Source of the DNA: Bdellovibrionota bacterium
GTDB taxonomy: Bacteria; Bdellovibrionota_C; UBA2361; JBIKWN01
DNA: 21,153 bases
Assembly: GCA_044356295.1 (NCBI GenBank)
Contig: JBIKWN010000041.1
Coordinates: forward strand, 1 to 21,153
Reading direction: 5' to 3'
In this document: positions 1,642 to 20,356 of the stretch, piece after piece
How positions within the stretch are numbered: the first letter of the stretch is position 1
Layout: every line of letters starts with the position of its first letter
The notes under the pieces: generated by a model
The model's database searches: none
What the model was told of the DNA's origin: nothing
The model's input: the letters and a program-made list of their open reading frames with translations, nothing else
Program-made: the position numbers and the translations under genes

Positions 1642-2525
1642 TACTTCGTAGGAGTAACAACCGCTTCCTCAACAACCCCAATCGGCTCAACAAACTTCCC
1701 ACTCATCGTCAAAAGCCCAGAAGGATCTTCTAACCCCTCCAAAAGTATCTGCCCCGTCTCAGTCATCAAATACCAACTTGGTAATTTCTTAACTTTATAA
1801 ATCTCTGGTGGCTGCATCGTTGGAATAATCGTAAATGCAGATGCAAGGCGGCGCTGCAAAGCTTTATCGGTTTTGATCCGATTAAACAATTCATTCATTG
1901 CGTTTTCAGCAAGTCGCGGATTATCTTTAAATTTGGCTTCAAGCTCTGCCGTATTATCTGGTACACCTCTATTAATCTCTTCCTGTGCAATCGCAAAAGC
2001 TTCTTTCATTGCTTTAGTATCATCCCTTCCATTAATGACAAGAAATACAGGAGCCGGATTTAATTCACGCTCACGAGTCAAACGATAATAATGAGCAAGA
2101 GTAGTTTTCATCTGTTCCGAACCATCTGCTTCAACAATAAGCCCTATTCCCCTCAATGGAATTGCACGTTCATCTTCTTCAGCAGAACGTGAGATCTGTT
2201 TTTTATTTTTGGACAGATCTTTTTCTGGTTCAATCTCTGGTTCTAAAACCGCTACCTTCTTCTTAGGCTTACTAAACAGATTATTTTCATCAGTTTCATC
2301 AGTGACATCAGTTTCAGTTTTTTGATGATCACTCTTTACTGGCTTTTGTTCTCCTATAATCGGGGCCTCTGTTGGTAATAGCGATTCTTGTTCATTTGTG
2401 TCACTTGGTGAGGACAAGAAAATATCATCCTGCGCTACAACAGCTTGCTCATAGAACAAAAGAAAAAAAACGACTAAACCTATTTCTCGAAAGAATTTTG
2501 AAAACGAAAACACCAATCTATCCAT
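1641..2525 (-). CDS. Exported hypothetical protein, possibly distant TrbC (F-type)/thioredoxin-like fold
   Basis: 294 aa; signal peptide ending AVVA-QDD, acidic low-complexity linker, C-terminal PPEIYKVKKLPSWYL reminiscent of the TrbC DPxLFxxFxIxxVPAFV motif. The CDS is clear; the family call is tentative. Confidence 0.55.
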   Translation of the reverse strand: MDRLVFSFSKFFREIGLVVFFLLFYEQAVVAQDDIFLSSPSDTNEQESLLPTEAPIIGEQKPVKSDHQKTETDVTDETDENNLFSKPKKKVAVLEPEIEPEKDLSKNKKQISRSAEEDERAIPLRGIGLIVEADGSEQMKTTLAHYYRLTRERELNPAPVFLVINGRDDTKAMKEAFAIAQEEINRGVPDNTAELEAKFKDNPRLAENAMNELFNRIKTDKALQRRLASAFTIIPTMQPPEIYKVKKLPSWYLMTETGQILLEGLEDPSGLLTMSGKFVEPIGVVEEAVVTPTK

Positions 2526-4967: not shown

Positions 4968-5890
4968 TTACTTTTCTCCAATTTGTATAAAGACTTTATA
5001 TAAGGATGGAATTCACCTTTGGCACTCTTTGAATAATTCTTCAAAGCAGGAAGCCCTTGATCAATATACACCCTTGCACCTTGAAGCCTCATCCTAAACG
5101 GAAGGCATGGTACCCCCATTTCAGTAATGTAGCTCCATCCCTTATTCGGCACTTCTTTAACAAATGGTACTAAAATTGTTGTGACCCCATAAACAATATC
5201 TGCATCCTCTACAAAATCCTTTGGTTCGATAAAAAGCATATCTTGGTAGGGCGATTTTTGACCTTCTAAACCTTCTGGAAAGCTTTCAGACATCTGAAAT
5301 GATTCACTTTTATCTTCTAGGCATCTTGAAACTGCTGGTGGTTCAACGTTTTCGAGGATCTCTTTGGTGAGCTGTTCCTCGGTAGGCATATTCTTGGCGG
5401 ACTCGATCCATTTCTGTTTAAAGTCCTCGACGAATGCTTTGACATCAATTAAAGGAGTCGGAGTTGGACCAGGAATGAGGTCTCGGCCTTCATTAAATTT
5501 AAAATGTTTTTCAATAGGAACCCAGGTCGGTTCTGGATCAAGTCCGTCTTCTCGTTGAGGTGGACTCGGTGTGTCGGGTGGATAGACTGGTTGTCTTTTT
5601 TGCATCTCTTCTGGTTGTGCTTCAAGAGGTAATGTTTTTAATACTTCTTCCGGCATCTTCATGCCTTCAGGTGCAATTTCATAACCAATTGATCCGTCTT
5701 TATTCTTTTCAGGTGCGGCTTGCCCCATTTGCATTTCTTGCTGAGGTTTTCCAAACAGATCGTCTTGAGCAAAACAATACGAGTTAGGTGTGACGCTTAC
5801 TATTAGTAATAGTATTAGACCAAAAAATAAATTTGAAATATCTAAATATTCCAAATTGTTACTAAAGGTGAGCGTCCCCTTTTTTTTCAT
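4964..5890 (-). CDS. Exported Pro/Glu-rich protein, possibly distant TraW C-terminal-like
   Basis: Open from 5917; the ATG at 5890 overlaps the gcvP stop (ATGA), but the true start is uncertain. Signal peptide ends [14 protein letters not shown] and [21 protein letters not shown] recall TraW LxFIDxxD and FGIxxVPxxVxQxGxxLxI. Confidence 0.55.
5863..5880 (-). repeat. 18-bp dispersed motif, copy 3
   Basis: The - strand reads AGGGGACGCTCACCTTTA, identical to 20184-20201; begins 6 nt after the gcvP stop. Confidence 0.85.
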
Positions 5891-11281: not shown

Positions 11282-12415
11282 ATGGCAACTTCATCAATGA
11301 CAATCGGTGTTCCACGAGAGAGAAAAACTTTAGAACAGAGAGTCGCTTTGACACCTGATGGTGCAGCAGAGCTAGTAAAACATGGCCATACTGTTCTTAT
11401 AGAGACAAATGCCGGTCAGAAATCCCATTTTGAAGATGCTCAATACACCCAAGCAGGTTGTAAGATAGTTCCAACACTTTCTGATGTTTGGACCAAATCA
11501 CAAATGGTGGTGAAAGTTAAAGAGCCCCACCAAGAAGAGTTCCAATTTTTTAGAAAAGATCACATCCTTTTTGATTACCTTCACCTTGCCAGCATGCCAG
11601 ATGTCACAAAAGCGATGCTTGACGGACAAGTAACAGGAATCGCTTACGAACTAGTAAAAATGCCTGATGGCCGGCTGCCTCTTCTTGAGCCGATGAGTGA
11701 AGTTGCGGGGAAACTTTCTGTTTTAAACGGAAGTTATTTCCTTCTTGGACAAAATGGTGGTCGCGGGGTTCTTCTTGGTGGAACTGTTGGTGTACTTCCA
11801 GCAAAAGTAGTCATCATCGGTGCAGGAATCGCAGGACGTTGTGCTTGTGAAGTTGCACTTGGAATGGGAGCAGATGTCTCAGTATTAGATGTCAATTATG
11901 CAAAGCTTGATCATATTAGGGTTCAGACATCAGGGCGTGCTCGCACAGTTCACTCAACAAAAGCTTCACTAGAGCGAGAAGTTCAAACTGCTGACCTATT
12001 AATTGGTGCAGTACTTATTCCTGGCGCAGCAGCTCCTAAACTTATCACTCGTGACATGATCAAATCCATGAAGAAAGGATCAGTTTTTGTTGATATCAGT
12101 ATTGATCAAGGTGGGTGCGGTGAAACGATTAAACCTACTAACCTTGATGCTCCAACGTTTATTGAAGAAGGTGTGATTCATTACGGTGTTTGTAATATGC
12201 CTGCTCAGACTCCTCGAACATCAACCCAAGCACTAACTGCTGCAACACTTCCTTACATAGTAAAAATAGCTAATAACGGTGGTATTGCTGCTTTAAATAA
12301 ATTCGCCGATCTTCGTGGGGCACTTAACACTCATCATGGGATGCTTACGAATCATGAAGTGAGTGAGGCAACTGGGTTTCGGTTTACTGCTATTGATGAG
12401 GCTTTGAAAGCTTAA
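11282..12415 (+). CDS. ald: Alanine dehydrogenase
   Basis: 377 aa; IGVPRE, EQRVALTP, VKVKEP, YLHLA, LPLLEPMSEVAG, GAVLIPGA.APKL, DISIDQGGC.ET, HYGVCNMP..PRTST.AL. Confidence 0.96.
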   Translation: MATSSMTIGVPRERKTLEQRVALTPDGAAELVKHGHTVLIETNAGQKSHFEDAQYTQAGCKIVPTLSDVWTKSQMVVKVKEPHQEEFQFFRKDHILFDYLHLASMPDVTKAMLDGQVTGIAYELVKMPDGRLPLLEPMSEVAGKLSVLNGSYFLLGQNGGRGVLLGGTVGVLPAKVVIIGAGIAGRCACEVALGMGADVSVLDVNYAKLDHIRVQTSGRARTVHSTKASLEREVQTADLLIGAVLIPGAAAPKLITRDMIKSMKKGSVFVDISIDQGGCGETIKPTNLDAPTFIEEGVIHYGVCNMPAQTPRTSTQALTAATLPYIVKIANNGGIAALNKFADLRGALNTHHGMLTNHEVSEATGFRFTAIDEALKA

Positions 12416-12425
12416 TGAGGATCTT

Positions 12426-12461
12426 TTTTGTAACGCGAAGGTCGCGAAGTACGCGAAGGGG
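12426..12461 (+). repeat. Left 36-bp inverted repeat of the GxxExxY cassette
   Basis: TTTTGTAACGCGAAGGTCGCGAAGTACGCGAAGGGG; three CGCGAAG units at 9-bp spacing; exact reverse complement of 12954-12989. Confidence 0.97.
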
Positions 12462-12548
12462 ATATTTTTGAAATTCGTGCTTTGACCCTGACGGTTTGAG
12501 TTTTTCTCGCAACTTTTTTTTGGAATTCATCGACCATTACTTATTAAA

Positions 12549-12947
12549 ATGAGTAATTGGAATAAAATGAATTTTGAGCCTTTGAGTAATCAAGTAATTA
12601 GAGCAGCTATGAATGTTCATACTGCTTTAGGTCCAGGCTTATTCGAAGAAGTTTATAAGGCCTGCTTATTTTACGAATTATCGAAAATTGGTCTTAAAAC
12701 ATTTTCCGAAGTAAAGCTTCCAGTTCTATATGATGAAAAAAAGTTAGAAATTGGCTATAGAATTGACCTGCTGATTGAAGATAGCCTCATTGTAGAATTA
12801 AAATCTGTAGAGCAACTTCGTCCGATTCATAAAGCTCAACTTTTGACGTATTTAAAGCTTTCAAAGAAGCCGATTGGCTTACTAATAAACTTTAATACAC
12901 CACATCTAAAAAACGGGATAATCAGAGTAATAAATTCCCAACCCTAA
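12549..12947 (+). CDS. GxxExxY protein (PD-(D/E)XK nuclease superfamily)
   Basis: 132 aa (alternative ATG at 12567); [14 protein letters not shown] contains GxxExx[18 protein letters not shown] nuclease core; [11 protein letters not shown]...GLLINFN. Confidence 0.95.
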
Positions 12948-12953
12948 TACTCC

Positions 12954-12989
12954 CCCCTTCGCGTACTTCGCGACCTTCGCGTTACAAAA
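12954..12989 (-). repeat. Right 36-bp inverted repeat of the GxxExxY cassette
   Basis: CCCCTTCGCGTACTTCGCGACCTTCGCGTTACAAAA, starting 6 nt after the GxxExxY stop. Confidence 0.97.
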
Positions 12990-13004
12990 TCCAAACAACA
13001 AAAA

Positions 13005-13033
13005 CTGTCACTTTCCTCCACTATTCAGTAGAA
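13005..13033 (+). promoter_or_regulatory. Candidate sigma70 promoter of fumarase
   Basis: CTGTCA(13005-13010)-N17-TAGAAT(13028-13033), 11 nt before the ATG; no obvious Shine-Dalgarno. Confidence 0.5.
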
Positions 13034-13044
13034 TCAATGACACC

Positions 13045-14655
13045 ATGGCAACATTCGAATACGAAAAATCAATCCAATTATCAGAAGACAAAACAGTCTA
13101 CCGCAAACTTCCTGGCGATTTTGTCAAAGAAGTAAAACTAACAGACGGCAGAACATTTTTAGAAGTAGCCCCCGAAGGGCTAGCACTTTTAACCAAAACT
13201 GCATTCGCCGACCTTTCGTTTTTTCTAAGAAGTGAACACTTAGAATCACTTCAAAAAGAGTTAGATGATCCAGAAAGCTCAGATAACGATAAATTTGTCG
13301 TCTATACACATTTACAAAATGCAGTAATCGCTGCAAACGGAGTCCTTCCTATCTGCCAAGATACAGGTACTGCCCAAATAATTGGATGGAAAGGAAAAAA
13401 CATTCTTACTGATGGAAACGATGCAAAGTATATCTCGCAAGGAGTATTCGAAACCTATCAAGAAAAAAACCTACGGTACTCACAGATAGCACCAGTAGAA
13501 ATATTCAAAGAGAAAAACACAGGTAACAATCTTCCTGCACAAGTCGAAATATACAGTGATGCTTCCGAAGATTACCGCTTTCTTTGCATAGCTAAAGGCG
13601 GAGGCTCTGCAAGTAAAATGTTTCTGTATCAAGCATCACCTGCAGTGCTTAACGAAAAAAGCTTTGAAGATTTTATTACTAAAAAATTGGCAGATATTGG
13701 CACATCCGCTTGCCCACCCTATCACTTAGTTGTTGTCATTGGTGGAACAAGTGCAGATGACACAATGAAAGTGCTAAAACTTGCATCAGCTAAATATCTA
13801 GACTCGCTTCCACTAACCGGAAATGAAAAAGGAAGAACATTTAGAGACATCGAGTGGGAAGGAAAAATCCTAAAAATTGCTCAGAAACTTGGAATCGGCG
13901 CACAATTCGGAGGAAAACACTTTGCCCATGACGTTCGAGTCATTCGCCAAGCTCGCCATGCAGCAAATTGTCCGATTGGACTTGGTGTTAGTTGCTCAGC
14001 AGACAGAAACCTTAAAGCTAAAATTAATAAGGATGGAATCTTTATTGAACAGCTTGAATTTAATCCAGCAAAGTACCTTCCAAAAGTTGCCCCCGAGATG
14101 GCGCCTCCGGTTGTCGTTAATCTTAACGAAGGAATGGATAAAGTCCGAAAACTTCTTTCTCAATTCCCGGTAAAAACTAGGGTTAGCCTTAATGGTTCTG
14201 TCATTGTTGCAAGAGATCTTGCACATGCACGAATCAAATCAATGATTGAAGCAGGACAACCTATGCCTGAGTATTTCAAAAAATATCCTGTCTATTATGC
14301 AGGACCTGCGAAAACTCCTGCTGGTATGGCGACTGGAAGTTTTGGCCCAACAACTGCTGGACGGATGGATAGCTTTGTTGATCAATTCCAAAGTCTTGGC
14401 GGTTCAATGATCATGCTTGCCAAAGGAAATCGATCACAACAAGTTACTGATGCATGTAAAAAATGGGGCGGATTTTATCTTGGGTCTATTGGAGGCCCAG
14501 CAGCAAGTCTAGCGCTGAATAATATTACAAAAGTTGAAGTAATAGATTTTGAAGATTTAGGAATGGAAGCTATTCGTAAAATCGAAGTAGAAAACTTCCC
14601 AGCCTTTATCGTGATTGATGATAAAGGCAATGATTTTTTTCAGATGCTAAAGTAG
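13045..14655 (+). CDS. fumA: Class I (Fe-S) fumarate hydratase, FumA/FumB type
   Basis: 536 aa; [87 protein letters not shown]. Confidence 0.96.
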
Positions 14656-20183: not shown

Positions 20184-20201
20184 AGGGGACGCTCACCTTT
20201 A
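20184..20201 (+). repeat. 18-bp dispersed motif, copy 4
   Basis: AGGGGACGCTCACCTTTA, 7 nt after the stop at 20176; identical to copy 3. Confidence 0.85.
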
Positions 20202-20356
20202 TAACATATTGTTTTTTAAGCTGAATTTATCAAGATCTCTATAATAATTAACCCTCTTGGTCGTATAGCGAGTCCCACGGGCATCGTCGTCGTTAAATTT
20301 TTACTACACCTTGATTAAAAAACTATCATAACTGAGATGAGATTAAAGGGGATGAT

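Follow-up and report, generated by a model that had tools for sequence, protein, structure and literature searches.

A strand-polar skew at silent codon positions beside hairpin repeats in a Bdellovibrionota genome

In yeast, inverted repeats and palindromes raise mutation in the flanking genes on both sides, and the effect depends on distance and on resection; the route proposed is a break, opening of the hairpin, resection and long single-stranded regions (PMC3681665). We describe a compositional pattern that bears comparison with this effect around a small hairpin-armed cassette, which lies between an alanine dehydrogenase gene (ald) and a class I fumarate hydratase gene (fum) in contig JBIKWN010000041.1 of a Bdellovibrionota bacterium (GenBank assembly GCA_044356295.1, here G000), and around related hairpins elsewhere in the same genome. 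The window is the entire contig (C30, 21,153 nucleotides); the assembly comprises 2.96 Mb in 128 contigs with 38.6% G+C, and close copies of the window are present in lake-water metagenomes. An earlier note on this DNA had drawn attention to G/T-ending codons at the end of ald and A/C-ending codons at the start of fum, and had suggested deamination of single-stranded DNA at a recurrently cut or remodelled cassette site. The mirrored polarity is a genome-wide property: on both sides of the repeats, G and T are enriched on the strand whose 3' end faces the repeat. The proposed tie to the PD-(D/E)XK gene of the cassette found no support: the skew tracks about 100 gene-less hairpins of two families, and the GxxExxY gene is single-copy in the assembly.

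The likeness to the yeast palindromes lies in the hairpin trigger, the two-sided effect and the fall with distance (PMC3681665). The yeast effect is an experimental rate increase over kilobases that depends on Pol zeta and occurs in a eukaryote (PMC3681665). The G000 case, in contrast, is a standing skew that reaches about 200 nt in the genome of a natural bacterium; it is dominated by transitions and is read from composition alone.

Strand asymmetries are known for replichores, transcription units and organelle genomes, whereas the skew described here extends for about 200 nt, flips its sign at about 100 palindromes and affects the silent sites of housekeeping genes. Asymmetric exposure of single strands underlies the leading/lagging GC skew of bacteria and the A>G and C>T gradients of the vertebrate mitochondrial H strand. 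These systems are alike in the G+T excess on the exposed strand, in the combination of A>G with C>T and in being graded by exposure, but they span replichores or whole genomes and follow replication; the G000 skew flips at each repeat and ignores GC-skew orientation, and no replication-type sign held over long distances was seen in G000. Transcription-associated asymmetry consists of a G+T excess on the sense strand. Gene ends beside the repeats share this sense-strand excess, but at gene starts no more than 80 nt from a repeat it is A and C that are in excess on that strand. Generic codon bias at gene termini gives low-level A-rich gene starts throughout the genome, whereas the effect in G000 follows distance from a repeat and not the gene end as such.

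As short intergenic palindromes, present in about 100 copies at gene ends, the repeats are also like repetitive extragenic palindromic (REP) sequences and bacterial interspersed mosaic elements, and like the REPIN-RAYT system. Genes that end before REPs in Escherichia coli likewise show a third-position shift that depends on distance, but it is smaller, covers about 18 codons and has no mirrored counterpart at gene starts. The G000 arms are unlike REPs in being built from repeated 6- or 9-nt units, in having GTAACG at the edge and in lacking an adjoining Y1 transposase gene: a search for Y1 (RAYT, PF01797) transposases beside the repeats returned four weak matches, two of them above the cut-off and none within 3 kb of a repeat of either family. 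One REP study reportedly names in its title a GTAG or CGTC tag at the palindrome edge; this tag is absent from the cassette-type arms, which start with GTAACG. Full-length forms in G000 carry GxxExxY or four-helix-bundle genes, unlike REPIN-RAYT. In the open-access literature searched (subscription journals lay outside its scope), we found no description of a compositional skew beside REP-like repeats or in the flanks of GxxExxY hairpins.

The features of the ald-fum locus are as follows (the cassette arms belong to repeat family A, described below).

11282..12415, + strand: ald, alanine dehydrogenase gene (open reading frame, ORF; TIGR00518 alaDH, 437.8 bits against a cut-off of 391.85)
12332..12412, + strand: G/T-ending tail of ald, the last 27 sense codons, with 24 G/T, 3 A and 0 C by codon count
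12426..12461, no strand assigned: left arm (36 nt) of the family A inverted repeat, TTTT followed by GTAACG and three CGCGAAG-type units of about 9 nt
12549..12947, + strand: GxxExxY / PD-(D/E)XK_3 gene, 132 aa (TIGR04256, E = 7e-43; PF13366, E = 3e-41)
12954..12989, no strand assigned: right arm of the family A inverted repeat, 100% complementary to 12426-12461
13005..13034, + strand: promoter-like site before fum (CTGTCA, 18 nt, TAGAAT), from a consensus scan alone
13045..14655, + strand: fum, class I fumarate hydratase gene (NF011920, TIGR00723), rich in A/C-ending codons across about its first 300 codons
13048..13107, + strand: A/C-ending head of fum, 20 of 20 codons after the ATG by codon count

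The hand counts in the earlier note were reproduced. Among the last 27 codons of ald, 15 end in T, 9 in G, 3 in A and none in C; the 20 codons that follow the fum ATG end in A (13) or C (7); and T-ending codons are indeed common elsewhere in the window, where their share is 0.30-0.47 across 17 ORF-called genes. To place these counts we used 2437 longest non-overlapping ORFs of at least 100 aa, which cover 86% of the genome and whose start positions are uncertain. Given the third-position composition of each gene, the binomial tail probability for ald is 2.0e-4; that for fum is 1.9e-5, or 9.7e-5 once generic 5' A/C richness is allowed for. The limits of both stretches were picked after looking, so rank in the genome is the fairer test. 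Tails (the last 27 codons) carry on average 14.9 G/T-ending codons (sd 3.2), and 20 of the 2437 genes, ald included, reach at least 24; 12 of the 20 have no C-ending codon. Heads (the 20 codons after the start) average 9.8 A/C-ending codons (sd 2.5), and fum is the only gene with 20. A scan of all positions found 92 clusters in which the share of G/T-ending codons (GT3) is at least 24/27. Of these, 23 end within 10 codons of a stop, a stop-adjacent share about 7 times the expectation from window counts. The distribution of tails is heavy at its upper end, and repeats follow many of the extreme ones.

Two repeat families were defined in G000 by k-mer counting and pattern matching. Family A has 99 arms at up to 4 mismatches, usually in a hairpin with a 12-nt loop; 44 arms lie in hairpins with loops of at most 20 nt, many lie at contig ends, and the copies are mostly identical or nearly so. 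Family C consists of GTGACC/GTGAGC-type hexamers, has 124 matches and forms hairpins too. Tails with a family A or C repeat no more than 150 nt downstream (122 genes) contain 18.1 G/T-ending codons, compared with 14.7 in the 2315 others (Mann-Whitney p = 1e-22) and with 15.07 in 536 repeat-free controls that have at least 100 nt of downstream spacer (p = 6e-16). At the opposite flank, heads with a repeat within 150 nt upstream (53 genes) contain 11.4 A/C-ending codons of 20 against 9.8 (p = 3.5e-5). When the repeat is within 80 nt (15 heads) the count is 13.1, compared with 10.1 in 823 long-spacer controls (p = 2.3e-4), and exclusion of fum leaves 14 heads at 12.6 (p = 7.9e-4). Ordinary termini do not share the skew: repeat-free tails score 14.4-15.3 of 27 and repeat-free heads 9.4-10.2 of 20 at any intergenic length, near baseline for every spacer length and for both neighbor orientations. 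Tails followed by ordinary unique hairpins score just 15.0-16.1.

The sign of the skew flips across each element of about 70 bp. Tails followed by a convergent gene and by a gene on the same strand are alike (18.2 and 17.9), as are tails of genes co-oriented with the local GC skew (18.0, n = 46) and head-on to it (18.1, n = 34), GC skew serving as a proxy for replication direction. Taken together with the mirrored heads, these symmetries speak against a cause that lies in replication direction or in transcription only. Exposure of the lagging strand alone was considered and rejected on the same independence from GC-skew orientation. Arms identical to the consensus are accompanied by stronger skew (0.68, n = 34) than less perfect ones (0.625, n = 16, and 0.61, n = 14; rho = -0.34, p = 0.006).

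The skew declines away from the repeats. In repeat-adjoining tails, GT3 in 9-codon bins counted back from the stop is 0.69, 0.69, 0.63, 0.61, 0.57, 0.58 and 0.58; farther back it settles at about 0.52-0.57, and controls lie at 0.53-0.57. Arranged by distance from the repeat, sense third positions give 0.66-0.70 up to 90 nt, 0.64 at 150 nt, 0.58-0.59 out to 240 nt and 0.53-0.55 thereafter. The skew fades over about 150-250 nt from the repeat. For tails the effect is seen when the repeat lies within 150 nt of the stop and is gone beyond this distance (n = 3-7 there). For heads with a repeat at 40-80 nt (n = 13) the values are 0.65, 0.675 and 0.556 versus 0.51, 0.47 and 0.45; the effect is weaker with the repeat at 80-150 nt (n = 37) and is gone at greater distances. 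Neither outcome that the earlier note had named as refuting its reading, equal skew at ordinary termini or a lack of decay from the repeats, was observed. Given the genome-wide association and the decay, the ald tail is a typical case of its class and not a chance run: it is one instance of a genome-wide compositional footprint centered on hairpin repeats.

Codon positions 1 and 2 show no shift. This confinement of the skew to third positions rules out an artefact of assembly or read error. At fourfold degenerate sites, the base shares are A 0.34, C 0.12, G 0.11 and T 0.43 in gene bodies and A 0.18, C 0.08, G 0.23 and T 0.51 in the final 18 codons of repeat-adjoining genes; the purine share moves just from 0.45 to 0.42, and families A and C behave alike. 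Beside the repeats, G/(A+G) at twofold purine sites is 0.51, up from 0.24. The codons most enriched in repeat-adjoining tails are CGG (4.8-fold), TTG (2.5-fold) and GGG (2.3-fold).

Comparison with a relative of the same genus, G002, places the skew in one lineage. We sampled 772 kb of G002 (80 of about 260 contigs, 636 ORF genes) and aligned the C-termini of 443 reciprocal-best pairs with G000. The 22 G000 genes with a repeat downstream score 17.9, whereas their orthologues in G002, which lacks these repeats, score 14.3, the background there being 14.6 (Wilcoxon p = 5.6e-4). For 17 skewed G000 tails without a repeat the values are 21.8 and 15.4. The skew is thus a feature of the G000 lineage, not one that the genes have conserved. 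The G002 tails have no heavy upper end (one of the 636 genes reaches at least 23/27, where 0.4 are expected, and none reaches 24), and no abundant repeat family is present in the 772-kb sample. The ald tail of G002 has 13 of 27 G/T-ending codons; that of another relative, G001, is A-rich.

The fum side of the locus is less clear-cut, and here the idea that its head is part of the footprint stands only in part. Heads beside repeats remain shifted when fum is left out, but the bias of fum is partly, and perhaps largely, intrinsic: its share of A/C-ending codons (AC3) is 0.58 over the gene, which ranks sixth among 1789 genes of at least 200 aa. Its G002 orthologue, with no repeat or cassette upstream, has an A/C-ending head of 16/20 and a whole-gene share of about 0.55, where the G002 baseline is 0.45. 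Judged from these comparisons, the 20/20 run adds at most a few codons to the intrinsic bias and the generic 5' trend. Orthologue pairs for heads number four genes only.

The cassette itself has the design of GxxExxY hairpin-armed elements, with a gene of about 125-130 aa, inverted arms of short units and gene-less hairpin copies elsewhere. Its arms are 36 nt each, perfectly inverted and 492 nt apart, and the gene occupies the place of the 12-nt loop in gene-less family A copies. A longer inverted repeat that might underlie the mirrored composition was looked for, and nothing extends past the 36-nt arms except a 12-mer of chance size. The gene scores 145.6 bits with TIGR04256 (cut-off 35) and 140.7 bits with PF13366 (cut-off 22), and tblastn finds one copy in the assembly. 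For family C, an arm pair 498 nt apart (contig C60:3763-4300) encloses an ORF whose frame looks interrupted. Its putative product appears to resemble the four-helix-bundle proteins of 23S rRNA intervening sequences. The two families look like gene-less derivatives of small cassettes, GxxExxY in one case and four-helix-bundle in the other. Among 31 related genomes searched, family A arms were found in four: G000 (99), G002 (1), G017 (2) and G025 (22); these counts are affected by the incompleteness of the relatives' assemblies, in which repeats often go unassembled.

In G002, whose ald is 92% identical, ald and fum are adjacent and a hairpin with a T-run stands where G000 has the cassette. The stretch TTCAGTAGAATCA ahead of fum, within the promoter-like site, is common to the orthologous G002 spacer. 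The stretch ATCTTTTTT, which precedes the hairpin/T-run terminator of G002, is also common to G000 and G002. A scan of the G000 spacer found no terminator-like site between ald and fum, and no Rfam family reaches its gathering score within the window. On this comparison the cassette seems to have taken the place of a terminator between the two genes, or to have inserted into one. Against NF011920, fum scores 743.8 bits (E = 9e-224), under the 1094-bit cut-off, and the domain model TIGR00723 scores above its own.

Other samples also cover the locus. Run X2, an independent 2024 sample nearly identical to the window, covers the ald tail at a depth of 5.32, with no change in it among the differences listed; runs X3-X5 provide short contigs. 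Joints from 12458-12461 to 12956-12957 in X2 and X4 were considered as a cassette-free allele and rejected: their sides match the arms only (26-32 nt), and the 10-14 other letters between the sides mark them as other hairpin copies and not as empty sites. A strain contig in X4 has 16 differences over 12108-12415 (about 95% identical) and keeps the G/T-rich ald tail, with three differences listed in the last 81 nt of ald; the match ends right after the stop codon, and the contig continues for 91 additional letters after it departs from the window sequence.

Patterns related to the family A arms were sought in other genomes. The arm pattern (GTAACGCGAAGG, any base, CGCGAAG) has 17 loci in genomes of species other than this one, and several look like chance hits within coding sequence of high G+C; pooled, they give 0.51 versus 0.50, a comparison that rests on unreliable stop-to-stop ORF picks. 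An unrelated 3.8-Mb genome, G031, has 42 related arms, and 29 flanks were fetched; sense third positions there give 0.64 and 0.59 within 120 nt versus about 0.55 farther out.

In E. coli K-12 (NC_000913.3; 86 loci, L170-L255, with 352 ORF genes), GT3 is 0.056 higher in tails that have a REP no more than 150 nt downstream (n = 117) than in the bodies of the same genes, whereas 184 tails without a REP differ by -0.007 (p = 2.5e-5) and 54 long-spacer tails by +0.006 (p = 0.016 against the REP tails). The effect declines with the distance from stop to REP (0.08, 0.08, 0.036, 0.009). The shift is limited to about 18 codons and consists of a gain of G (0.47 versus 0.30 in the last 9 codons) and a loss of C and A, with no gain of T. 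No head effect was seen in 17 heads beside REPs (p = 0.86). We found no description of this REP-adjacent tail shift in the open-access literature searched. A related tail effect may occur in general where genes end shortly before stable palindromes; the mirrored pattern of transitions has so far been shown in G000 only.

As the cause in G000 we favor, tentatively and at somewhat less than an even chance, a strand-polar mutational footprint at the hairpins. A DNA transaction would recur at intact hairpins; it could begin with a cut or nick that is then resected, or with a gap where synthesis stalls. The 3'-inward strand would repeatedly be left single-stranded and accumulate A>G and C>T changes, and purifying selection would clear the mutations that change amino acids. 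Through these events the hairpins could also be copied from one another and so stay alike. We infer the breakage, resection and deamination, as well as any nuclease role for the GxxExxY protein. Several features of break-associated mutagenesis in single-stranded flanks are present in the composition, as distinct from observed mutations: a palindrome, an effect on both flanks, dependence on distance and a switch of polarity. The stronger skew beside intact arms fits an ongoing process that needs an intact element. It is also possible, though we consider it doubtful, that the repeats of hairpin-armed cassettes, and perhaps REP-type palindromes in general, are recurrent natural sites of cleavage or gapping, with about 200 nt of the 3'-inward strand exposed on each side and a kataegis-like, strand-coordinated scar as the result.

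The deamination footprint put forward in the earlier note survives in one respect, since A>G and C>T on the 3'-inward strand make up most of the fourfold changes, but an A>T component and a weak shift in the spacers do not fit it. These and several further observations weigh against a mutational cause. The A>T share is about 0.05 relative to control tails, so that about one third of the A lost goes to T, unlike deamination. Spacers between stop and repeat are nearer to the hairpin and yet shift far less (G+T 0.54-0.55 versus 0.505 in controls); their G/(A+G) is about 0.35-0.36, the same as in controls, and reaches 0.45 solely at the most skewed loci, in contrast with the rise from 0.24 to 0.56 at fourfold sites. 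The arms are near-identical while at least one fifth of the flanking silent sites have changed, which would call for a local rate that is very high or for homogenisation of the arms. Some 30 tails with equally strong skew, that at 1644-1724 of the window among them, have no recognisable repeat. No break, empty site, cassette-free allele or rearrangement was seen at the ald-fum locus in contigs from other samples, and the view of this site as a remodelled locus accordingly found no backing there. Fourfold sites differ by 64% between G000 and G002, too far to polarise substitutions, and the amino-acid-changing differences from G002 lean weakly the same way as the silent ones (tails 96:84, bodies 301:349, p = 0.11). 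In G031 the trend is weak and non-significant when taken per flank (0.546 versus 0.523, 26 flanks, p = 0.41), and the spectrum of the E. coli REP tails looks more like selection than deamination. Within family A, spacer G+T does rise with tail skew (rho = 0.40, p = 0.0014). Missing hypoxanthine repair was considered as the source of A>G and set aside: PF04493 was not found in G000 (93.6% complete), nor was it found in five other genomes, G002 and G031 included, and it is therefore non-discriminating. Uracil-DNA glycosylase is present in G000.

Selection on RNA, which we hold to be possible but on balance unlikely, would account for some of these difficulties. Silent sites would keep RNA that leaves a non-terminating hairpin, in either direction, A/C-rich, G-poor and unfolded. 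The palindromes lack a U-tract, and the one at ald-fum, where no terminator-like site was found, is placed where G002 has an ordinary terminator with hairpin and T-run. Unfolded RNA would suit Rho loading on read-through or antisense transcripts and the translation start of the next gene, and a G/U-rich sense tail would be the complement of the A/C-rich requirement. The extent of the skew, about 100-250 nt, is comparable with the size of a Rho loading site. Such selection fits the strong shift of silent codon positions beside weakly shifted spacers, and avoidance of A/C fits the A>T component better than deamination does; the G gain and C and A loss of E. coli REP tails, without T gain, point the same way, as do the A/C lean of generic heads and the slightly higher GT3 of repeat-free convergent tails (15.0-15.7 versus 14.4-14.7). 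However, antisense entry should make convergent and same-strand tails differ, and they are equal (18.2 versus 17.9); freely varying spacers should respond at least as much as codons; and weak selection on silent sites is slow, yet the skew is strongest beside consensus-identical arms. Ordinary hairpins give little effect, and heads and tails would require two separate selective reasons. Selection against pairing of tails with the arms was tried as a variant and rejected: RNAduplex energies are no weaker for tails than for bodies, and pairing is slightly stronger with the right arm (p = 0.03, family A).

Two other accounts dispense with any action of the hairpin on its flanks. Elements might insert or survive where the flanks are already skewed, or recombination might carry 100-250 nt of donor flank along with them; we regard this as improbable. 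The 30 or so equally skewed repeat-free tails could be unoccupied targets, the arm copies look young beside strongly altered flanks, and the X4 strain, which keeps the G/T-rich ald tail and diverges immediately past the stop codon, also fits. Yet the orthologous tails in G002 are unskewed both at occupied sites (14.3) and at unoccupied extreme sites (15.4; background 14.6), donor codon usage would make heads G/T-rich when they are A/C-rich, and a target motif gives no reason to expect decay with spacer length. We know of nothing that would create such insertion targets. At the ald-fum locus alone, two unrelated ordinary biases might face each other, a chance run in ald and codon usage with 5' A-richness in fum. 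The A/C-ending richness of fum throughout and the 16/20 head of its repeat-free G002 orthologue are in accord with this, as are the choice of limits after looking and the 67 internal clusters with GT3 of at least 24/27, which by our estimate are roughly as many as heterogeneous composition allows. The genome-wide association (p = 1e-22) and the decay nonetheless place the ald tail in a class, and heads near repeats stay shifted without fum. This reading is thus largely refuted for ald and stands as a partial explanation for fum; as an account of the locus we consider it very improbable. Such weight as remains goes to mixed or other causes.

A mutational cause would give a sequence-only readout of a habitual breakage site, and of resection length, in an uncultured organism, and would make small selfish hairpin elements local mutators that reshape the codon usage of their host neighbors. 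If the cause is selective, the choice of silent bases across tens of codons is adapted to an RNA hairpin next to the gene, which bears on models of codon usage, on dN/dS tests near gene ends and on gene design. Either way, the skew provides a handle on the role of the widespread, unstudied hairpins of GxxExxY and four-helix-bundle cassettes, and the hint from E. coli REPs makes the effect testable in a model organism.

The second strongly skewed tail of the window lies in a gene far from the cassette.

1641-2525, - strand: gene with a strongly G/T-ending tail at 1644..1724 (26/27), with no family A or C repeat adjoining

No multicopy sequence of any kind follows this tail in the window. Elsewhere in G000, the convergent genes C70:91564-92772 (+) and 92784-93740 (-) have stops 11 nt apart and tails with 24 and 25 of 27 codons ending in G/T. 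There is no hairpin between them; the pair could be a vacated site or have a different cause. A conserved 20-nt intergenic motif, AGGGGACGCTCACCTTTATAA, has 19 copies genome-wide, usually a few bases past a stop codon, and occurs in the window at 20187-20207 (+) and about 5863-5880 (-). It was examined as a companion of the skew and dropped: among the 11 upstream tails scored, the count of G/T-ending codons varies from 7 to 26 of 27 and shows no clear association. Genome-wide k-mers also contain a 29-nt repeat of about 67 copies, which points to a large CRISPR array somewhere in the assembly and is presumably a type I-E CRISPR repeat, to judge by its look.

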